A stretch of 63,085 nt of DNA, counting the filler, from Chrysochromulina tobinii (lineage: Eukaryota): NCBI GenBank assembly GCA_001275005.1. It is 4 parts of 4 records of this genome, joined end to end, with 100 filler letters (N's around TTAATTAATTAA, not from the genome) between each part and the next. Parts side by side here need not be neighbours in the genome. Positions count along the whole stretch, not along the records: positions 16,846 to 31,567 come from JWZX01000680.1; 3 more parts are not named here. The stretch is one strand, 5' to 3'. Under the pieces are notes generated by a model that saw only the letters and a list, made by a program, of their open reading frames with translations, was not told where the DNA came from and made no database searches. Below are positions 14,089 through 55,883 of the stretch, piece after piece; position 1 is the first letter of the stretch; each line of letters starts with the position of its first letter. The translations under genes and the position numbers were made by a program.

Positions 14089-14241
14089 TTGACCCAAGGG
14101 GGAGTGGTCTACTATTTTTCATGTTTATAAGGCCCTAACCCCACACCTGTTTGGGAACTGAATGGTTGACCCAAGGGGGAGTGGTCTACTATTTTTCATG
14201 TTTATAAGGCCCTAACCCCACACCTGTTTGGGAACTGAATG
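14089..14241. repeat. Tandem duplication, 2 x 77 bp, relatively AT-rich
   Basis: TTGACCCAAGGGGGAGTGGTCTACTATTTTTCATGTTTATAAGGCCCTAACCCCACACCTGTTTGGGAACTGAATG starts at 14089 and again at 14166. Confidence 0.95.
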
Positions 14242-16745: not shown

Positions 16746-16845
16746 NNNNNNNNNNNNNNNNNNNNNNNNNNNNNNNNNNNNNNNNNNNNTTAATTAATTA
16801 ANNNNNNNNNNNNNNNNNNNNNNNNNNNNNNNNNNNNNNNNNNNN
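16746..16845. other. Artificial contig linker
   Basis: 44 N + TTAATTAATTAA (stops in all six frames) + 44 N. Confidence 0.99.
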
Positions 16846-18576: not shown

Positions 18577-19304
18577 ATTCCAGAGCCGTCAGGCGCTACC
18601 CTGTCGTACTCGCCCTCGCTCGCCTGCGCGGCGACCCAGGGGTGAGCTGCGAAGCCGCGGTACTCCAAATCTTCGAGCGGCGCATGGCGCCTCGCATACG
18701 TCTCGTCGTCGCTCCCGTCCTCGCTCCCGTCCGCCTCGCCGTCCGCCTCCCCGTCCGCCTCTCCGTCCGCCTCGTCGGCCTGGTCCTCCTGCTGCTCGTC
18801 GCCCTCGCCTGCGCTGGTGCCGGCGCACGTTGACAACGGTGCAGGGAGGACGCGAAACGACGCGCGTGGCATCGCATCCGGCTTGATCGCTTGATCCATC
18901 GGCGGAAGCCGAAGCGCTGCAGCCCGGCAGATGGCAGCCGGGGAGATGACCGTGCCGTTGATGGACCACGCTTCGTCTTCGTCCGGCGCGACGCCGGCAT
19001 CTTGATCGCCCTGGGCAGTGGCAGCAGCTGGTCGATGCATCGCAACCCAAGCGTCCGCAGCCTCGATGGCGTCATGCCATGCCTGCCCTTGTCCACGCGC
19101 GGACATTGGGAGCGTCGGGAGATCTGCGTACGGCCGCAGCCTGCTCAGGCTGCACAGGCCTCGCTTGCTGTCGCCGAAGAAGAGGAGGGACGCGGTGGCG
19201 GTGTCGATGAACTGCACTATCGCAGGGTACCAAAGTCGCTTGCCGAGCCGGGCGAGCACGACGTCGCCGCGGACCAAACTGACACCATGGACAGGAGACA
19301 GCAT
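16846..19304 (-). CDS. PWWP-domain chromatin protein with Cys/His motifs (multi-exon, 3' truncated at contig end)
   Basis: GDVVLARLGKRLWYPAIV...LLFFGD...LRPY..WHDAIEAA (PWWP). Intron 18347-18445 joins it to the 16872..18209 frame. Intron 16955-17043 restores CKYECGYESVRANAMGGHSRNC. More introns are possible in 17160-17580. Confidence 0.72.
17157..17358. repeat. 66-bp tandem repeat x3 inside the PWWP gene
   Basis: Unit encodes TDSDGAHDGAPSDSRGAHDGAW on the minus strand. Confidence 0.9.
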
Positions 19305-19514
19305 GATCCGAAAGCAGGACCCCCACGCCTTGTGCGCCAGTTCGCTTCCACAGACGGCGGACGAAAAGCGGGGAGGAGGTTCTGGGCGTCGCTTTGGGAG
19401 GGGATGTTGCGATTAACGGCGCGGGAATCACGGAAAGTGTGAAATTCCACCCAGATTGACCCGAGACTTGTGGTGCGCTGCTTTTCTGCGGCAATTCCCA
19501 AGTGGCTTGACAAG

Positions 19515-22500
19515 ATGCACGCGGCAATGCTCCTCAGCTTGCTGTACCCGCCGATCACGGGCTACAGCGTGGCGTACGGCCCCGGGGCACACAGCGTGCC
19601 GCCGATCGCTCCGCAGCGGCGACCCGCGCCAGCGCGTGTGGCAGCTCTGAGGATGGAGGTGGAGGCGGCGGCGCCATCGGCGGTCCAGTTGGCTGTGTCC
19701 TCCACTTTCCAGCTCCCAGGTGGCAGCGCCGGCAGCAGCATAGGCAGCAGCAGCAGCGATGGCGGCGATGGCGGCGTCGGAGAGGAGGACTGGTCGTTCT
19801 GGCTGTCGCGCCCGCGATACGCCCGCTTGCGCGACATCGCCCTCTCCATCACCGTGCGAAGGACGGTCAACGAGGCCGAGCTCGCGCTCAAGCTCGCTCG
19901 GGAGTACTCGTCGAATCCGTCGCTGCTCCAGGATATCGACTTCTCGTCGCTGATCCTGCGGCTACAGAGAGACATCGACGTGAACAACGCGCCGCTCAGC
20001 GCCTCCGGGATGCTCTCGGCGGCCGAGCTCGACGAGATCTTGAAGCGCCAGATCGACGCGATCGCCGAGCTGAAGGCCAACCCTCTGGCGCTCGAGCTGG
20101 CGCTGGATGGAGCGGTGAGCGGCGCGGCGGGAAAGCTGCCCAAGCTGCGCCGCGTCATCTCGCGCGCTCGTGAGCTTCCGTTAACGATCGATCTGCCCGC
20201 CATCCAAGGAGACGGCGGTCTGGACTTCCGACTCGCTCTCAATGAGAGCAAGAATGTCGTCGAGGCGGTCCAGCAGGCGTGGCAGCGGCTGAGCGGCACG
20301 TCGCCCGAGAAAGAAGAGACTCTCATGACCCTCCAGCAAGAGTCGCGGGCGTTGCTCTCTCTACGCGCCGAGGCGACGAAACTCCGTGGAGGTGATGGCG
20401 TCTGATTGCCACTGATTGCCATTGATTGCCATTGATTGCCATTGATTGCCACTGATTGCCACTGATTGCCACTGATTGCCATCAGAGGCGACGAAACTCC
20501 GTGGAGGTGATGGCGTCTGATTGCCACTGATTGCCACTGATTGCCATTGATTGTCATTGATTGCCATTGATTGCCATTGATTGCCACTGATTGCCATCAG
20601 AGGCGACGAAACTCCGTGGAGGTGATGGCGTCTGATTGCCATTGATTGCCCTTGATTGCCATTGACTGCCATTGATTGCCATTGATTGCCATCAGAGGCG
20701 ACGAAACTCCGTGGAGGTGATGGCGTCCGATTGCCATGCGGCTGATGGCCACACGAGTGCAGCTGATTGCCACCCGACGCCCCTTGACGAACCCGACTCC
20801 CCTTTCGCAGGCATCAAGCTCGTGCAGCGCCAAAAGGAGCTCAAGGCGGCCTACCTAATTAGGTTTGGCACCTCGGCAGGATTGATGGAGGAGACGTTAC
20901 GCGCGGACGTGGCCATCTGCAAGCTCCAAAAGGAGCTCGGGCTCAAGTACGTTGATTGCCATTGATTGCCATTGATTGCCATTGATTGCAGATGATTGCC
21001 GATGATTGCCAATGATTCGCGAGCTGGAAGAGGGATCGTGGGCTCAAGTCCGCTCTCATCTTCGTGATTGCCTTATGATTGTGACTCGATTGCGACTGAT
21101 GATCCCTGATTGCGTCTCCCTAATATGGCAGGTCCGCTCTGCTCGAAATGGAGCGCATCTTCCTGACTCTCGAGTCTGAGCTCGCACTCACCTCGTCCCT
21201 CATCGACCAGGTGATTGATTACGTCTGATTGCATCCTGATGGGGACTGATTACTCTCGAGTCTGAGCTCGCACTCACCTCGTCCCTCATCGACCAGGTGA
21301 GGACCACTGAGGACCACTGAGGACCACTGAGTGCTATTTGATGACCTCCCATGACCTCCCATGACCTCCCATGACCACGGATGCTCCCCCGTCCGTCACC
21401 GGCCAGCTGCTCGAGGCCGTGCAGCGCTACGGCGAGATGGAGGCGAGATTGCACGCGATGGTGACCGAGGTGCAGCGAGATCAGCATGCACGCGTGGACG
21501 AGGATCAGCTACTTCAGCTCGAGCAGCAGATCTTCGTAGAGCTCTTGCAACTGGGGCTGCAGTCACAGGTAATTGACGACCTTTGAGTGCATTCTGACGA
21601 CATCCGATGACCTTTGAGAGCATACTGATGACATCCGATGACCTTTGAGAGCATGCTGATGACATCCGATGACCTTTGAGAGCATACTGATGGCATCCGA
21701 TGACCTTTGAGTGCATACTGATGACATCTGGTCGCATCTCGCAGGACACGGGTAGACCGGAAAGCTTCTCGTGGCCGCGCACGCGCGAGGCGCTCCAGGT
21801 CAATGCCAAGCGTGCCGGCGAAGGGCTTGCGTTCTACTCCCGAGGCCTCCGGCTCATGGGCGAGGATGTTCAGCTGATGGTCAATATGATCAGCCGCGCC
21901 GTCGTCCAAGGGTACGCTGATTGCGTCTGATTGCGTCTGATTGCGTCTAATTGCCTAATATGATCAGCCGCGCCGTCGTCCAAGGGTACGCCCAAGACGA
22001 CGCGAAGCTCTCTCACTGATGACTGATGACCTCACTGATGACCGTTGATCTCTCACTGATGGCCGTTGATTACCAAGGGTATGGGAAGCTCTCCCCACAG
22101 CAGAGGTAGGGGAGGCATGACAGTGCTCCCCACGGCGCCCTCTCCCCACAGGTACACCCTCAAGCCGCGGGAGGCGAAGTTGCTGCAGCGCATAGCCAAG
22201 GACCTCTTCACGCTCGTGCCCTTCGTCATCATCCTCATCATCCCTCTCTCGCCACTCGGGCATGTGCTCGTCTTCTCCTTCATCCAGCGCTTCTTCCCAG
22301 GTGATCTCCCGCTGATCTCCCGCTCATCTCTGACCTCGGATGACCTCGGATGACCTCGGATGATCACGGATGATCCCGGATGATCACGGATGATCTCGGA
22401 TGACACCTGATGACCCTTTGGAGTGCCTCTGAGCGCGATCTCGTCCTCGGCAGATTTCTACCCGTCGCAATTCACAGAGTCTCGTCAGAACATCATGTCG

Positions 22501-22849
22501 ATGTACTCGGCCATCACAGCCCCGAGCACAGGTGCGCTGACGAACCTCTGACGAACCTCTGATGACCTATGATTGCCTTCCTCATCACAGCCCCGAGCAC
22601 AGGTGCGCGGCTGAGCCTCGGTGCGGACCTCTGATGACCTATGATGAGGACCTCTGATTGCCTCCCTCATCAGGTGCGCGGCTGAGCCTCGGTGCGGACC
22701 CAGCAGAGCAGACGGAACAGGCGGGGGAGGTGGCGCAAGCAGTTGCGGGTGCGGTCATTGGCACCGAGGTGGCGCTGATGAAGGCCGAGGTGACGGAGAC
22801 GGGCAAGGCGGAGGCGGAGGCTACGGGCAAGGCGGAGACGAAGTCCTGA
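19515..22849 (+). CDS. LETM1-like protein, probably plastid-targeted; 8 exons
   Basis: Exons 19515-20391, 20811-20946, 21132-21210, 21407-21568, 21745-21911, 22152-22300, 22454-22531, 22674-22849, all GT-AG. Spliced C-terminal part reads [10 protein letters not shown]...[58 protein letters not shown] (LETM1-like). N-terminus looks like signal peptide plus transit peptide ending ALRM. Confidence 0.8.
20392..20810 (+). repeat. Intron built from (YTGATTGCCA)n 10-mers plus three copies of the exon end and donor
   Basis: Read directly from the sequence. Confidence 0.9.
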
Positions 22850-22976
22850 TCATGGCATGCTGGTGATGGCATGCTGATGATGGGCACTGTGGAGACAAAG
22901 TCATAAGTAGATAAAGGAGCAATGGCCGTCAGAAGCGTGAGTGCTGCGGCCGACACCGGCGCCGTTGGCGGCGCGA

Positions 22977-23081
22977 ATCACCGTAACGAAACGTCCATGG
23001 CCTGTGGGATCATCACCGTAACGAAACGTCCATGGCCTGTGGGATCATCACCGTAACGAAACGTCCATGGCCTGTGGGATC
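22977..23081. repeat. 35-bp perfect tandem repeat x3, downstream of the LETM1-like gene
   Basis: Unit ATCACCGTAACGAAACGTCCATGGCCTGTGGGATC, with no spacers. Confidence 0.95.
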
Positions 23082-23649
23082 AGCCTTTGGGACGCGATGA
23101 GGCCTCATGGCGGGCGTTATGAGGCGTCATGGCGGGCGCACACACGCACACACGCTATGAGCAGGCGCGCGCGTGCGGGGTGCCAGGTGAGAGAGAGAGA
23201 GAGAGGAGGACCTGAATCCCGCACTCTCGCAGTCACTTAGCCCCCCACTTTGCCTCCCCGCTTTGCCCCCCCCACCTCCAGCTGCTGGGGTGGGGGAAGA
23301 GCAGAGAGGACCTGAATCCCACAGTGCCGCCAGTTACTTTCGCCCCTCCCCCCTCAGTCTCGGGCGAGTGGTGAGACGAAGGTGCAGGAGCGCAACGGAC
23401 TGCGCGTACAGTGGGAGAATCGTCTCGGAATACATGTTGTAGTGCGTGTGTGTCGAATACATGTTGCACAGCAAAAACGAAAATACCGTCGTACAATTGT
23501 ACGACGTCCCCCCAATTGGATGAATTTTCTACTCAACTTTGTTGTCCGATTTGGAAAATCTCTGAAATCTCCGATGTGGCAAGTTGAAGTTTGAAAAAAG
23601 GGCGTTCGCGTGATTGAACACCCGATTGTGGAATCGCAAGTTTCGCGAC

Positions 23650-24003
23650 ATGCTTGAGGACTCTCTCGCGTCGCGGCTTGCCGAGAGGCGTCAGCTCAGT
23701 CAGCGCCGCCGCAGCGAAAGACCGGCTTCCCCCTGGGCTCAAGCGAGCATGAGCCTACGTACTCTATCACCTCTGTCACGTCGCGCAGAGACAGCGCGCA
23801 CGAAGTTGTTTTCCGATGAGAAGGAGCCCTTGGCCATGTTCTCGCCCGAATTCTTTTCGTTGGTGTACACCGAGCAGAAGCAAGATCGCGCGACCGGCAC
23901 CACGGAGCAGCAGAGGCGTGTGCTGCTCGCGCCCCGCTCACGCGATTCGTCGCCTCGACACGGGGGGACGCCATCACCGACGCTCGTACTCCCCATCTGG
24001 TAG
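23650..24003 (+). CDS. Hypothetical small protein (117 aa)
   Basis: ATG ORF (MLEDSLASRLAERR...) downstream of an AT-richer promoter-like stretch; no recognisable domain. Confidence 0.35.
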   Translation: MLEDSLASRLAERRQLSQRRRSERPASPWAQASMSLRTLSPLSRRAETARTKLFSDEKEPLAMFSPEFFSLVYTEQKQDRATGTTEQQRRVLLAPRSRDSSPRHGGTPSPTLVLPIW

Positions 24004-24636: not shown

Positions 24637-27600
24637 TCATCGCGTGCGCTTGGGCGCTGCTTTGGAGGGTTGCCTCGCTGTCGCGCCGCTCGACCCCTTG
24701 CGAGGCGTCGTCTTGGGCGCATGGCCGGACGAGGCTCGATCTCGCTTGGAGCTCGATCTCGGCTGAGCTGACGCCGCGCGCGGTGGCGTCGGGCTCGGCG
24801 GCGGCGGGTTCGGCGGCGGCAGCGGCGTGTGCCGCTGCCGCTTGCGTGCGGCCATGATGGTCTCGAATGCCATCTTTGTCTTCACGAAGACTTCGGTTGT
24901 ATCACGAGCCCTGTAATGACCGACGCAATCAGGTGGTCATCAGGAGTCATTATTAGTCATCAGGAGTCATCAGTAGTCACTCAGGGGGCAATCAGGTGTC
25001 ATCAGGAGTCACATCTCACGTTTGAGAGTCGAAGGCCGACGTTTTATCTGGGTGATAGACGAGCGACAGCTTCCGATATGCGGATTTCACTTCACTCGTC
25101 GAAGCGAAACGGCTGAGACCAAGCGTCGCGTATGACTCCACCAATGAGAGCCCGTCCCTCGCCCAGCGTGTGCCTGATGTGGACGAGAGACGAGGCGCCG
25201 TGGTGAGCACACGCATTCTCGGGCAGGAGCTGAGGGCATGGAAACCCCTTAATGTCCCAATCGAAGCATTTGGAGGTGCACTCAGAGGCACCCAGAGGCA
25301 CTCAGAGGCACTCAGAGGCACCCAGAGGCACTCAGAGGCACTCAGAGGCACTCAGACGCACCCAGAGGCACTCAGAGGCACTCAGAGGCAACCAGATGGG
25401 CACACCTTTAATGTCCCAATCGAAGCATTTGGAGGTGCGCCGGTCGCCACTGAAGATACACAAGCGCTCGAACGCCGTGCCGAGCGCGCGTGACCATTCG
25501 ATCTTGAGGCAGGCGTGCTCTTGCCAGCCACCGCCACCGAGCGCGTGAATGACGAACCTGGCGAGCCGATCGGGTCTGAGCATGCACATGCCGCCGCTGA
25601 CGAAACGCGCCGCGTTGAGCGTGCGCTCTCGCCCGTCGACGGTGAGTGGCACCTGATGAGGGAGGCAATCAGCCACCATTAGGACGCCATCAGTCGTACT
25701 CTGGACGTAATCAGTCCCCATCAGAATGCAATCAGACGTAACCGGTCCCCATCAGGATGCAATCTGACACAATCAGCGTACCGTCTGGCGCATGAGGAAT
25801 GCAATCAGCCTGATGAGGGAGGCAATCAGACACAATCAGCGTACCGTCTGGCGCATGAGGAATGCAATCAGCCTGATGAGGGAGGCAATCTGACACAATC
25901 AGCGTACCGTCTGGCGCATGAGCAGCCCTGCGAGCACCAGAGCCCAGAACGACGCGGCGACGAACCTGATGAGGGAGGCAATCAGTCTGATGAGGCATGC
26001 AATCAGATATGTGAGCCCAGAACGACGCGGCGACGCACGTGACGGCCAGTGCCGCGAGCAAAGAGCGGCGCGGCTGTCGTGTGGACGGACGTCGACGTAA
26101 CGACCGTAGATTGACCGCCATGGCCGCGAGCAGCAGAGGTAACGTGACGCCGCCGCGCCCGGCATCCGTCGCGGCGGCGGCGGCGCCGGGAAGCCAGAGG
26201 GGCGCATAGCCACACCTGATGAACGACACAATCAGAGGCCATCAGAGGCCATCAGAGGCCATCAGAGGCCATCAGAGGCCATTCAGAGGTCATCAGAGGC
26301 CATCAGAGGTCATCAGAGGTCATCAGAGGTCATCCGAGGTCATCCGAGGACATCCGTGGCCATCAGAGGTCACTCAGAGGCCATCAGAGGTCATTAGAGG
26401 TCATCAGAGGTGATCAGAGGTCATCAGAGGTCATCAGAGGTCGTCAGAGGTCATCAGAGGTCATCAGAGGTCATCAGAGGCATTTTGAGGTCATCAGAGG
26501 TCATCATCACCTCTCGATCACAGCGCCACCGAAAGCGCTCAGCGCGAGGAGCCTGTTGGGTACCGGTAGCCCCGTCGTGCCGGCAGCGAGGAAGAGGGTC
26601 AGCAGCGCGCAGCTTGCATGCACCTAATGAGGGACGCAATCAGAGGTATTTAGAGGTCCTCAGAAGAGGCACTCAGGGTTGCATGCATACAGTCATGCAC
26701 CTGATGAGGGACGCAATCAGAGGTATTTAGAGGTCCTCAGAAGAGGGTTGCATGCATACCGTCATACGGAGCGTGGGCGACAGCAATCAGTCTGATGAGG
26801 CATGTAATCAGAAGAGGCTCTCAGGGTTGCATGCATACCGTCATACGGAGCGTGGGCGACAGCAGTGGCGGGTCTAGACTGCTGCTGAAGCGCAGTGCGT
26901 GATATGTGAGCCACGAACCTGTATTCATGGTACAAGAGGCGACCCGTCGCTGTCAGTCGCCATCTGTCGCAATCAGACGCAATCCGACGCACTCAGTCGC
27001 GCTCAGTACGTGATGCGTGCGCCACGCACCCAGAGGCCATCAGAGGCGATACGCACCCTGAGCAATCAGTTTCAATCAAATGCAATCAAATGCAATCAGA
27101 GGCCATCAGAGGTCATCGGAGGCCATCAGAGGCGCCACGCACCCAGGGCAAGGTGCCAGCTCAGACTGATGAGGGAGGCAATCAGTCTGATGAGGCATGC
27201 AATCAGATATGTGAGCCACGCACCCAGGGCAAGGTGCCAGCTCAGACGATAGAGCAGCCGCACCGCGCCGGAGAGTACGCTGAGCTCCGAGGCCATCATC
27301 ACCGTCTCACTCGCTAGAGGCTGACCAGCGACGCTCTCAGCGCGAGTTGCCACATTTGGGGCGACCTTAGCGAGTTGCCATTTTTGGGTCGGCACAGCCG
27401 CCGCGCCGCCGTGGGCACCCCCCTTGTCAAGCACCGAGGCTAGCGAGGCTGGAGAGGCTTCGAGGCTAGCGAGGCTGGAGAAGGCCTTCGAAGCGTCTCT
27501 CGAGGCAGGCTTTGACGACACCGCACCTCGAAGCCTCGCGATGGCTCCGACGGCCCAAAGGCTCAGCTTGCCCACAGTGTCGAACGCGCCACCGCGGCTG

Positions 27601-28037
27601 CCGCCGCTCGGATGGGCTTCGGCCTCGGCCTGGCCGAGCTGTCGCACGTAGCTCGGGATGCGGAACGCGTCGCGCACCCAGCCGAGCAGGAACCCGTTGA
27701 GCGAGATCGACGAGACGAGCGCCTCGCAGTTCCGGCCGAGGTACAGATGATGTGCGCCGAAGATGCCAAAGAGGGCCCAGAGCACGTACGCGACGAGCAT
27801 CCGGAACACCGAGAACGGGACTCGCACGGCAGGAGCACCAGCCGGTGCGTGTGCCTCGTTGGGGACGGCGGCAGGCGCGGAAGCCGCCCGTGCTGCGCGC
27901 AGCTCTGAGGCGATCAGCAGCTCTCTGCGTGCTGAAACGGTCCGCCCGACGCCATGGAGCTGGCCATCAATGGCGGCGGTGCTGGAGAGCATGAGAAGCA
28001 GCAGGATGCCGGCTATGGGTGGCGAACTTCGTCTCAT
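24637..28037 (-). CDS. TM2-domain + multi-TM + C-terminal DnaJ protein (DNAJC22/wurst-like); 8 exons
   Basis: Introns 26919-27223, 26624-26838, 26216-26510, 25966-26038, 25653-25907, 25174-25405, 24911-25019. TM2 motif LVAYVLWALFGIFGAHHLYLGR...GWVRDAFRIPSYV; J domain YATLGL..SEVKSAYRKLSLVYHPDK..FVKTKMAFETI; signal-like N-terminus MRRSSPPIAGILLLLML. Confidence 0.82.
26216..26510 (-). repeat. Intron consisting almost entirely of (CTGATGRCCT)n 10-mers
   Basis: Read directly (plus strand CATCAGAGGT/C repeats). Confidence 0.9.
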
Positions 28038-28511
28038 TGTGGCTTTTGCAGTGGCTTTGAGGTACCGCATGTGAGGACGCCACCCTTCTGCGAGCGCGAG
28101 TGAATGGTCAACGGCGTGTGATGACGCGTGTGAATGGTCAACGGCACAGACGGCGCATTCTCTGCTCAAGCAAGGACAAAGTTTGTGGAGGTCCTGTAAA
28201 TCGTGACGCAAGGTTGGTAGTTGACCTACCTGACAACACGCGACAGAAGAACTGGCAGGTGCGTCGAAGCATTGCATGATAATGACGTGGCCCCGACCCA
28301 CCGCCATATCATAGCTGGACACGTCTCCGGGGATGGCAGGAGCAGGAACACGGCCAGGAACACGGCCCGAGCCACCGAACTCGCCGAGAGCACGTCGGAA
28401 CACATGTGTGTGCTGAGAGCACAGATCACAGCTCCGGGCGGGCGCTGTGGCGCTGAGGCAAGTATCTCCGCCCAAATCAGGCAAGTATCTCCGCTGTCTC
28501 GGGGCCGCCGT

Positions 28512-28600
28512 TAGGCGCTCTGCTGGGCACCCTCTGCTGCCGGTAGGCGCCCTGCTGGGCACCCTCTGCTGCTGTAGGCGCCCTGCTGGGCACCCTCTGC
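28512..28600. repeat. ~32-bp tandem repeat x3 downstream of the DEAD-box gene
   Basis: Unit approximately TAGGCGCCCTGCTGGGCACCCTCTGCTGCCGG. Confidence 0.85.
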
Positions 28601-28835
28601 CGCGTATGTCCACTCGTCCGCATGCCGCATGCATCGGCCGCCGCGCCGCGCCGTATCGAGCGCGCCGACGTCCTCATGCCGCATATGCATCGGCCGGTCT
28701 GACCGCGCCGTATCGGGCGCCCGCTGCGCACATCTCTCTCGCTCTCAGTGAGTCAGATGCCCCCTTACGCTCACACGCACGCACGCGCGCGCACCTCCCT
28801 CACCCTCTCTCGCGCGCGTAGGTGCGAACATCTGC

Positions 28836-31256
<2,421 letters not shown>

Positions 31257-31567: not shown

Positions 31568-31667
31568 NNNNNNNNNNNNNNNNNNNNNNNNNNNNNNNNN
31601 NNNNNNNNNNNTTAATTAATTAANNNNNNNNNNNNNNNNNNNNNNNNNNNNNNNNNNNNNNNNNNNN
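31568..31667. other. Artificial contig linker
   Basis: 44 N + TTAATTAATTAA + 44 N. Confidence 0.99.
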
Positions 31668-50710: not shown

Positions 50711-50810
50711 NNNNNNNNNNNNNNNNNNNNNNNNNNNNNNNNNNNNNNNNNNNNTTAATTAATTAANNNNNNNNNNNNNNNNNNNNNNNNNNNNNNNNNN
50801 NNNNNNNNNN
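50711..50810. other. Artificial contig linker
   Basis: 44 N + TTAATTAATTAA + 44 N. Confidence 0.99.
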
Positions 50811-54579: not shown

Positions 54580-55883
54580 ATGGGGTCCGCTTTTCTCTCT
54601 CACGTGTTCAGCCCTGTGAACGGCGCAGTCCTGGCCGTCGCGCTCGCCATCCTGCTCGCATGGCCGAGCAGAGAGTCGCACGCGACAGCCGATCCGGAAG
54701 CGGCGGCAGCGGAGGCAGACAGGCTGCGAGAGCGCTGGGACTCGCTCGGCGCGACCCTCAAGATGGCCAGCGGTGCGAGCGCACACTGGAGGCAGTTCCT
54801 CTTTGACCACTATGGCGCCGACGACAGGCAATACCACACGCTGCGGCATCTCACCGAGCTCTTCTGGCATCTGGACCGCGCCACGGCCAACGGGTGGCTC
54901 ACTCGGCCCGAGAACGTGGCCCTTGCCATCTGGTTCCATGACGTCATCTACCACGGCAAGAACGGGGAGGACGAGGAGGCGTCCGCGCTCGCGTTTGAGC
55001 GCTTCGGAAAGGAGGCTGGTCTCGACGCGAGCGACATCGCCTCGGTGGCCAGCTGGATCCGGCTGACGGCAACCCACAAGTGCTCTGAGGCTGAGCACGG
55101 GACGGACTGCTGCCTGTTCATGGACTTTGATATGGCGATCCTTGGCAAGCAATGGGACCGAACGTGGGAAGGCTGCCCGGTGGCGCCCCACACGGGCTAC
55201 AAGGACTATGCGCTACGTGACGTGCTCGGCGAGTACCGGAAGCTCAAGGGAGTTCCGAAGGTATACCTCTGATTGCCGCTGAGTGCCGCTGAGTGCCGCT
55301 GAGTGCCGCTGAGTGCCGCTGAGTGCCGCTGAGTGCCGCTGAGTGCCGCTGAGTGCCGCTGAGTGCCGCTGAGTACCGCTGAGTGACGCTGATTGCTGCT
55401 GAGTGCCGCTGAGTGCCGCTGAGTGCCGCTGAGTACCGCTGATTGCCACGGATCGCCTCCCCGATGGCCTTTCTGATGGCCGCCCTGATGACCTCCCTGA
55501 TCGCCTCCCCGATGGCCTCTCTGATGGCCGCCCTGATCGCCTCCCAGATGACCTCCCTGATACCAAGATAGCCGCCCTGATGGCTCCTCCCATCAGCCCC
55601 CTGATGGCCCCTCTCATCGGGCCCCTGATGGCCCCCTCCTCAGGTCTTCACGCGTCTCTTCGAGCACTCAGTTTGGAGTTATGGGCGAGCACGATTCTTA
55701 CTGGGCGCGAAGGCTCCCTTCAGTACCTCGGTGTACAAAGAGCAGTACGAGGCCGAGGCGCTACGAAATATCGCACGGGAGCTCGAGCACTGGCAGTCGA
55801 ACCAGTGGCGCTTCGAATGGTGCTTGGGCGGCTTGGTGACGTGGTCCATCCTGTATGCTCTACGACGGGTCTTGGTTTCGTAA
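54580..55883 (+). CDS. HD-superfamily metal-dependent phosphohydrolase (COG4339-like) with terminal hydrophobic segments; 2 exons
   Basis: RQYHTLRHL, AIWFHDVIY, EEASA, TATH, DFDMAILG. Intron 55261-55643; exon 2 reads VFTRLF..GRARFL..YEAEALRNIARE..TAA at 55881-55883. Confidence 0.82.
55269..55447 (+). repeat. Intronic (CTGAGTGCCG)n 10-mer array
   Basis: About 17 near-perfect units within intron 55261-55643. Confidence 0.95.

Follow-up and report, generated by a model that had tools for sequence, protein, structure and literature searches.

A compound intron of Chrysochromulina tobinii that carries a copy of its own spliced exon-exon junction, a probable remnant of two target-duplicating insertions at one site

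The origin of new spliceosomal introns is a long-standing question, and several ways in which introns may be gained have been put forward. Introners are spliceosomal introns derived from transposons, which have been described in algae and other eukaryotes, including a family in Chrysochromulina sp. (Gozashti et al. 2022, PMC9860276). The passages of that study on insertion sites give target duplications of 3-9 bp, fixed within a family, and characterize the Chrysochromulina family by a 4-bp duplication and by an element that carries the 5' splice site. The evidence for introners is mostly statistical. Another model, reviewed by Yenerall and Zhou (2012, PMC3443670), invokes the insertion of a transposon into an AGGT protosplice site, and in the model of Rogers an intron is gained by tandem duplication of an exon segment that contains AGGT (PMC3443670; see also the accounts of tandem-duplication intron gain in Hellsten et al. 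2011, PMC3265369, and Ma et al. 2016, PMC4974935).

The window analysed here, a stretch of 63,085 nt of Chrysochromulina tobinii DNA with a GC content of 0.56-0.71 per 2 kb, contains eukaryotic genes whose numerous short introns are occupied by tandem repeats of 10-11 nt. The gene that hosts the intron of interest is LETM1-like, as indicated by the match of its exon 6 to Pfam PF07766 (E = 1.1e-5; score 25.6 bits, cut-off 25.3). The gene model (see the table) was derived from the pieces of RNA records (19516-20389 and 22671-23006 are found in one 1980-nt record), from their joints and from the sequence; introns 1-4 were placed by length bookkeeping and reading frame and not by listed RNA joints, and exons 2-4 have a combined length of 377 nt, which is what the RNA record demands. 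A search against Rfam returned a single sub-threshold match, to a C/D-box RNA in intron 6 (19 bits versus a gathering score of 45 bits).

Inside intron 7 of this gene, positions 22583-22629 reproduce letter for letter two segments in succession, the final 20 nt of exon 7 (segment A, 22512-22531) and the opening 27 nt of exon 8 (segment B, 22674-22700), and the original prediction, made from the sequence alone, that this intron carries a 47-nt copy of its own spliced junction is thereby confirmed by exact identity. Within the window, A occurs twice, B twice and A+B once, counting exact copies, and by our own arithmetic the number of extra copies expected by chance is about 6e-8 for a 20-mer and about 4e-12 for a 27-mer. 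A repeat search resolves the 47-mer into the middle part common to two overlapping direct repeats, each with a spacing of 71. The first pairs 22512-22548 with 22583-22619, is exact over its first 26 nt and covers positions -20..+6 of the junction, and the second pairs 22600-22629 with 22671-22700, is exact over 30 nt and covers positions -3..+27. Their overlap is the 9-nt sequence CAGGTGCGC, which had been reported at both junctions of the intron; it is indeed present at both, and its nine letters fit either side of the RNA joint. The order along the region is therefore A+GTGCGC, core 1, A+GTGCGC with the rest of B, core 2, and CAG+B, and the four repeat copies have kept 100% identity. As read from the sequence, the intron would consist of two adjoining 71-nt units, and with either one taken out, the other would still form an intact intron with unchanged surroundings.

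Coordinates of the features discussed in the text (positions in the window)
Feature	Position	Strand	Basis or remark
Exon 1 (end)	20391	+	gene model
Intron 1	20392-20810	+	gene model
Exon 2	20811-20946	+	gene model
Intron 2	20947-21131	+	gene model
Intron 2 junction copy, 17 nt (8 nt of exon 2 + 9 nt of exon 3, exact)	21040-21056	+	own-junction alignment
Exon 3	21132-21210	+	gene model
Intron 3	21211-21406	+	gene model
Exon 4	21407-21568	+	gene model
Intron 4	21569-21744	+	gene model
Exon 5	21745-21911	+	gene model, RNA joint
Intron 5	21912-22151	+	gene model, RNA joint
Exon 5 tail + GTACGC, 35-nt exact copy in intron 5	21957-21991	+	74 nt from the original
Exon 6	22152-22300	+	gene model, RNA joint
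Intron 6	22301-22453	+	gene model, RNA joint
Exon 7 (78 nt)	22454-22531	+	RNA pieces 22451-22528 in X12 and X13, 3-nt ambiguity; reading frame
Intron 7 (142 nt, GT..AG)	22532-22673	+	RNA joint; CAGGTGCGC at both junctions
Target duplication 1, first copy (A+GTGCGC, 26 nt)	22512-22537	+	exact repeat with 22583-22608; holds the used 5' splice site
Core 1 (45 nt)	22538-22582	+	with GTGCGC before and CATCA after, element E1
47-nt junction copy (A+B)	22583-22629	+	overlap of duplication 1, second copy (22583-22608), with duplication 2, first copy (22600-22629)
Core 2 (41 nt)	22630-22670	+	3' part with the next CAG is the family 3' end CTGATTGCCTCCCTCATCAG (22654-22673)
Target duplication 2, second copy (CAG+B, 30 nt)	22671-22700	+	exact repeat with 22600-22629
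Unit 1, 71-nt GT..AG (GTGCGC + core 1 + copy of A)	22532-22602	+	read from sequence
Unit 2, 71-nt GT..AG (copy of B + core 2 + CAG)	22603-22673	+	read from sequence
Exon 8	22674-22849	+	gene model
Intron of the DEAD-box gene, 144 nt	30290-30433	-	E1 at the start, then a decayed duplicate of the tail of its own exon, 20-mer CTGATTGCCTCCCTCATCAG at the end

Splicing removes the entire 142 nt. Seventeen sequencing runs (11 DNA and 6 RNA, all in the form of contigs) contain at least half of the sampled words of positions 19000-24000, and two of the DNA runs (X1 and X11) and two of the RNA runs (X12 and X13) were aligned to positions 21750-23050 at 99% likeness. One contig in each RNA run (893 nt in X12, 1980 nt in X13) joins 22528 to 22671, a joint that skips 142 nt and that, with the cut shifted three places rightward, corresponds to the GT..AG intron given in the table. 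The X12 and X13 contigs also join 21910 to 22151 and 22297 to 22451, across the two upstream introns, and the joint of intron 7 is absent from DNA runs X1 and X11. The second copy of target duplication 2, at whose first position, 22671, the RNA piece begins, holds the used 3' splice site and the start of exon 8. Positions 22542-22629 are uncovered by the RNA contigs, which alone says little, as it is the joint across the intron that counts. Since the RNA records of both runs pass from exon 7 to exon 8 without an extra 47 nt, these transcripts do not contain the copy as an exon, and the possibility raised with the original prediction, that the segment is a separate exon of a different gene structure, fails. 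As to the DNA, a 336-nt contig (22336-22671) with 0 differences and 0 gaps, which spans core 1, the 47-mer and core 2, is present in X1, possibly the window's own source sample, and in X11. The region is rich in repeats and short-read contigs break around it, which could raise the suspicion of an assembly artefact; the repeats of 26 and 30 nt, however, are shorter than 31-letter words, and the structure is found whole and without a single difference in contigs of two DNA runs, which at the level of contigs speaks against an error of this particular assembly. We consider that an artefact or a small extra exon is barely conceivable as the source of the copy. The contigs of X1 and X11 represent the full form only, without an intron-less joint, although contigs by their nature cannot show absence.

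Both cores are drawn from sequences repeated at unrelated loci; they are mobile or copied and have not grown locally. The 20-mer CTGATTGCCTCCCTCATCAG, at the 3' end of unit 2, is found in the window 7 times exactly and 17 times with up to 3 mismatches, against 0.01 expected from shuffles, and 3' ends of this type are present at no fewer than 135 metagenome loci. Core 1 is a part of the 56-nt element E1 (GTGCGC + core 1 + CATCA), which can be aligned, with 54 of 57 columns identical, to the first part of an intron that belongs to a DEAD-box helicase gene at a distance of 8 kb (30433-30376 on the - strand); the exon lengths of that gene agree with record 14 of RNA contig X12. No close copies of E1 were found among the 135 metagenome loci listed, and the two copies on which the E1 family is based are both in the window, which counts against the reading of E1 as a mobile family. 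Elsewhere in the window, a 47-nt element occurs without any difference at two sites, 25963-26012 and 27167-27214, and is flanked at each by its own host repeats (23 and 33 nt), and ten further host-sequence repeats of 20-49 nt, with spacings of 73-89, are located around CTGAT-rich cores. The element is predicted to bring the acceptor CATCAG along with a pyrimidine run and a CTGAT that resembles a branch point, with the donor probably supplied by the duplicated target. It has no terminal inverted repeats, only an internal 8-bp pair TGATGAGG/CCTCATCA, and no transposase or reverse transcriptase was linked to it. The left edge of the 47-mer adjoins the canonical 3' end of E1, within 1 nt of the end of E1 in the DEAD-box gene, and its right edge adjoins core 2, which is shortened at the 5' side in appearance.

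The shared spacing invites an explanation by tandem duplication or unequal exchange of a 71-nt intron flanked by CAGGTGCGC..., with parts of the product overwritten later. Both repeat pairs have a spacing of 71, the region can be read as 2.7 units of period 71, and a true tandem duplication across an exon-intron border does exist in intron 1 (period 115, 95% matches). Nevertheless, the units are not alike throughout: units 1 and 2 have 26 + 19 nt in common exactly, while 11 of the 21 positions between differ in spite of the identical flanks, and with the period of 71 only 30 nt are common to unit 2 and unit 3. The interior of unit 1 matches the intron of the unrelated DEAD-box gene, as described above, and two further replacements would be needed. 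In addition, a misalignment of the 30-nt repeats would place ...CATCAG followed by B in the middle of the intron and not A followed by B, an objection that also tells against misalignment via CAGGTGCGC, one of the origins suggested in the original prediction. An exchange of this kind is in our view very unlikely.

The generality of the duplications was assessed in metagenome contigs, which were scanned with an 18-letter 3' motif. The 135 loci that the scan listed contain 201 motif sites, 185 of them unique; the next letter is G (CATCAG) in 163 of the 185 and the next three are GGT in 97. Among the matches listed, 145 sites have the following G and full flanks, and 134 of them were retained after removal of near-duplicates. 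The sequence immediately after CATCAG is repeated exactly within 330 nt upstream over at least 12 nt in 36 of these 134 listed sites (over at least 16 nt in 35), compared with 7 of 134 when the sequence was taken 45 nt deeper in the exon and 1 of 134 when it was the exon start from another locus picked at random. Twelve of the 36 cases, plain tandem arrays or repeats far apart, were set aside, which leaves 24 simple cases, a few of them (L006, L013, L071 and L093) still array-like. Among these 24 as listed, the upstream copy begins with GT in 15 and with GC in 4, the duplication has a median length of 32 nt (range 18-59, mismatch-tolerant), and the spacing has a median of 72.5 (IQR 64-83), with 71 at the mode. 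Across loci, the length of the duplication varies from 13 to 59 nt, the 3' end of the element is constant and its 5' ends are variable. The simple introns at the loci listed are composed of a copy of the head of the next exon and a core ending with CATCAG, placed between the two exons, which is the same build as that of unit 2 (cf. L026, L097, L114 and L120). The lengths of duplication and core are negatively correlated (r = -0.55, p = 0.005, n = 24, a few tandem arrays included), which hints at a constraint on the total length added. A blastn search for the orthologous LETM1 locus among the 135 metagenome loci listed did not find it, and the same loci provided no presence/absence pairs, the two candidates being internal repeats.

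Copies of the spliced junction recur in other introns. For each of the 7 introns of the host gene, the spliced junction (30+30 nt) was aligned to the intron itself, and junction-spanning copies were detected in 3 of the 7 (introns 2, 5 and 7), compared with none in 42 cross-pairings and none in 7 alignments with the halves swapped. The copy in intron 5 (29+8 nt, one mismatch) is ambiguous because the donor GTACGC resembles the head of exon 6. In an annotation-free scan of the window with 8+8-nt arms, in which GC-rich exons create a chance background of 16-18 nt and only copies in GT..AG register and longer ones were used, the GT..AG register was observed only at introns 2 and 7 among 74 registers of the + strand. 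In a different gene, L085 comprises three tandem units of exon tail and intron, then 15 nt of exon tail with 29 nt of the next exon, and ends with a core finishing in the 20-mer, a compound build like that of the focal intron. Among the loci listed, two of the three matches of the GT/GC..AG type (L078 and L133) do not share the strand of the motif and were dropped. The search for junction words that had been proposed for the whole genome with the prediction covered the window and 135 listed metagenome loci, and junction copies recurred in both.

These copies bear on the suggestion that an intron-less template was used, that is, that a break in an older intron made of E1 and the second element was mended from the gene's own spliced mRNA or cDNA, with insertion of 47 nt. 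In its favour, the stretch matches the spliced sequence exactly, the RNA runs show that the gene is transcribed and spliced, and junction copies are present in intron 2 and in L085 as well. Such a patch, on the other hand, would need a break exactly at the canonical 3' end of E1. It would leave unexplained the many introns whose 5' end duplicates the head of the downstream exon and nothing else, where the contiguity is genomic, and also the copies of the exon tail alone in introns 1, 3 and 5, of which intron 1 has a four-copy array of the tail of exon 1. The 47-nt copy lacks the hallmarks of an RNA origin: it spans one junction, with neither a poly(A) or A-run nor a second exon junction, and its edges coincide with element ends. 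As far as can be judged by sequence comparison, these edges are where a target duplication would place them, and for a cDNA patch their positions would be a coincidence. We therefore find a patch of this type most improbable, and copying from spliced mRNA, cDNA or an uninserted allele, as envisaged in the original prediction, is not the leading explanation of a 47-mer that is the overlap of two duplications.

Its alternative reading, that the 47-mer is the pre-insertion sequence, is supported by the anatomy of the repeats around multi-copy cores, and with it the expectation that the copy is a clue to how such introns form. Each duplication brackets a multi-copy core, so that the contiguity of A and B can be that of the ancestral exon and no intron-less template is needed. 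In our opinion, the 47-mer is probably the original target, preserved in the middle when two insertions took place one after the other at a single AG|GT site; each insertion would have duplicated 26-30 nt of the target. In the first step, an element with CTGAT, a pyrimidine run and CATCAG would have entered the exon and duplicated CAG and the following 27 nt; the GTGCGC of the upstream copy would have become the 5' splice site of a 71-nt intron that starts with a copy of the head of exon 8, i.e. unit 2. In the second step, E1 would have entered across the border of exon 7 and this intron, duplicating 20 nt of the exon and GTGCGC and adding another 71 nt, i.e. unit 1. Given an intron of the first kind and an insertion with duplication over its 5' border, a copy of the junction inside the intron must appear. 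The first 5' site would be spliced to the last 3' site with removal of all the added sequence, and because of this the insertions would be neutral. An identical sequence would result if the steps had come in the reverse order, or if two alleles with one insertion each had recombined.

Two independent events do not account for the length of exactly 71 nt in both units, which is a coincidence under this history and counts against it, although 71 is at the mode of the spacings. The equal lengths, as well as the complete identity of the four repeat copies, as if they were of one age, and the presence of bases shared by element and target at every junction (GTGCGC, 6; CATCA, 5; ACC, 3; CAG, 3), would be accommodated by one complex event of replication or break repair, in which serial template switching mediated by microhomology created all 142 nt at once. 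The path would lead through A+GTGCGC to an E1-type intron, back to A and through A+B, to the second element, and back at CAG. It requires four switches, however, while single-unit introns built like unit 2 are frequent elsewhere, and single steps therefore clearly happen; compound arrays, such as L085 and the four copies of the exon tail in intron 1, also appear to have been built stepwise. We regard a single event as unlikely, and prefer the two successive insertions.

With respect to the chemistry of such insertions, the long and variable duplications, the constant 3' end, the variable 5' ends and the few bases shared at the junctions may suggest, if faintly, copying primed at a staggered break in place of a cut-and-paste transposase with a fixed stagger. 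The template could be the DNA of other introns, through template switching in repair or replication, or the RNA of an excised intron, through target-primed reverse transcription. Insertions of LINEs and SINEs by target-primed reverse transcription are characterized by target duplications of variable length, a constant 3' end at the downstream copy, 5' ends that are variable and look truncated, and microhomology at the 5' junction. The introns described here resemble this signature in their variable duplications, constant 3' end, variable 5' ends and microhomology, and differ from LINEs and SINEs in that the elements have 19-67 nt, no poly(A) and no reverse transcriptase found, and a 3' end that is a splice acceptor. 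A spread of introns by target-primed copying of excised intron RNA, similar to retroposition, with the 47-mer as a fossil of the empty site between two events, is a tentative and rather unlikely scenario. In its favour are the end of the mobile unit at the 3' splice site (CAG-3'), the start of full-length E1 at GT, the 5'-truncated look of the shorter copies, the long and variable duplications, and the few bases common at the junctions, which in combination are hallmarks of priming at a nick with a second nick placed loosely.

What is new here is a compound intron that keeps its own empty site and duplications that are tens of bases long and variable. Owing to the empty site kept between the two units, one can read off directly how long each duplication is and where it lies (-20..+6 and -3..+27 around AG|GT), and since duplications of such length and variability do not fit a transposase with a fixed stagger, they suggest another insertion chemistry. 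Compound introns of this kind are also ready markers, as alleles with 0, 1 and 2 units would time the steps and test the mechanism. A search of the literature found repeat-filled introns in haptophytes undescribed beyond the study of Gozashti et al. (PMC9860276), whose supplementary tables may list such families; its passages on insertion sites contain no description of a compound intron keeping an empty site, and the passages of PMC12130899 on target-site duplications make no mention of long variable ones.

As in the protosplice-site model, in the form presented in the relevant part of its review, the duplicated target holds AG|GT and splicing restores the coding sequence; the difference is that 26-30 nt around AGGT are duplicated and that two events are stacked at one site. 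The model of Rogers, as outlined in the sources cited above, shares with the focal intron the copy of the downstream exon at the intron start and the restoration of the mRNA by splicing at the duplicated AG|GT, and differs in that 41-45 nt per unit are not derived from the exon and are multi-copy intron sequence. A plain tandem duplication of an exon segment with AGGT was rejected as a candidate, because only 26-30 nt of each 71-nt unit belong to the host and the cores match introns of other genes. The system described in the pertinent passages of PMC3020277 (2011) and PMC3443670 likewise has direct repeats around the new sequence and microhomology at the junctions, but here the repeats are long, and the filler is recurrent with a constant 3' end and not unique. 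The focal intron resembles stwintrons (twin or nested introns, in the sense of the description in PMC12403724) in having two full GT..AG units at one intron position, either of which is removable with the other left intact; unlike the stwintrons of that description, its units adjoin and neither is located within a splice site of the other.

The closest likeness is to introners, as portrayed in the sections of PMC9860276 on their insertion. The system consists of near-identical short introns at unrelated sites, flanked by a target duplication, and one splice site comes from the element and the other from the duplicated target (here the 3' site from the element and GT from the duplication). Multi-copy sequence at non-homologous sites, a target duplication specific to each locus and removal by the spliceosome were all found, as opposed to a link to a transposon class, which was not. 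At 13-59 nt, the duplications greatly exceed those in the same sections in both length and variability, and the 5' part of the element is variable. Judged by these features, the system works like an introner family, with unusually long and variable duplications.

In both DNA runs, a 36-nt contig that spans the 3' end of the focal intron (intron 7 of the LETM1-like gene, which holds a 47-nt copy of its own spliced junction) together with GTGC of exon 8 has a word depth about 14-15 times that of its neighbours (1625 vs about 105 and 650 vs about 48, respectively), a value that does not equal copy number. The raised depth indicates that this exact end, including the first bases of exon 8, recurs elsewhere in the genome. 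The 20-mer that forms the constant 3' end of the multi-copy intron element lies on the sense strand wherever the strand of the gene is known, intron-internal copies included; no antisense copies were seen among the 17 matches in the window (63 kb), the gene strand being established only for the LETM1-like (+) and DEAD-box (-) genes.

Exon-tail copies are also present in other introns of the LETM1-like gene. At intron 1, the final 22 nt of exon 1 together with the donor (GAGGCGACGAAACTCCGTGGAG followed by GTGATGGCGTC) are found four times, spaced by 115, 115 and 95; this is a genuine tandem array, with 95% matches at a period of 115 in TRF. CCATCAG precedes every internal copy, so that each constitutes a potential 21-nt in-frame pseudo-exon. 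Intron 3 contains an exact 49-nt copy of the exon 3 tail plus GTGA, located 86 nt downstream of the original, and the 37-nt core between both copies differs from the sequence that follows the second one.

Positions in the window of the features described in this section
Feature	Position	Strand
36-nt contig	22642-22677	
Exon 1 tail copies	20370-20735	+
Exon 3 tail copies	21166-21300	+
Intron with direct repeat, DEAD-box gene	29802-29869	-
Duplication plus element, TM2-domain gene	27134-27247	-
Open frame, TM2-domain gene	27126-28673	
Perfect tandem repeat, 35 nt x 3	22977-23082	
Perfect tandem repeat, 77 nt x 2	14089-14241	
Paired 44-N runs	16746-16845	
Paired 44-N runs	31568-31667	
Paired 44-N runs	50711-50810	
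Intronic 10-11-nt units (example)	20402-20692	
Intronic 10-11-nt units (example)	22331-22415	
Intronic 10-11-nt units (example)	26231-26506	
Intronic 10-11-nt units (example)	55269-55447	

In the DEAD-box gene, a direct repeat about 24 nt long spans the two junctions of a 68-nt intron (CTTCTTCACAG followed by GTACGTGGCCGACGC, then CTTCTTCACAG followed by CGACGTGGCCGCGC). The core of this intron does not belong to the CTGAT type, and therefore long junction-spanning duplications may not be confined to a single element family. Within the long open frame of the TM2-domain gene, a 33-nt duplication and a 48-nt element add up to 81 nt, a multiple of 3; no GT..AG choice obviously gives back the original sequence, hence the addition may be retained as coding sequence or imprecisely spliced.

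Perfect tandem repeats occur outside introns as well: the 35-nt x 3 repeat sits just 3' of the LETM1-like stop codon, and the 77-nt x 2 repeat is AT-richer. The paired N runs, with 12 bases between the members of each pair, look like masks rather than assembly gaps; they coincide with the filler between the joined records. The 10-11-nt repeat units of introns across the window nearly all begin with CTGAY or CTGAG, starts that are similar to the branch-point consensus, and introns thus bear arrays of potential branch points.
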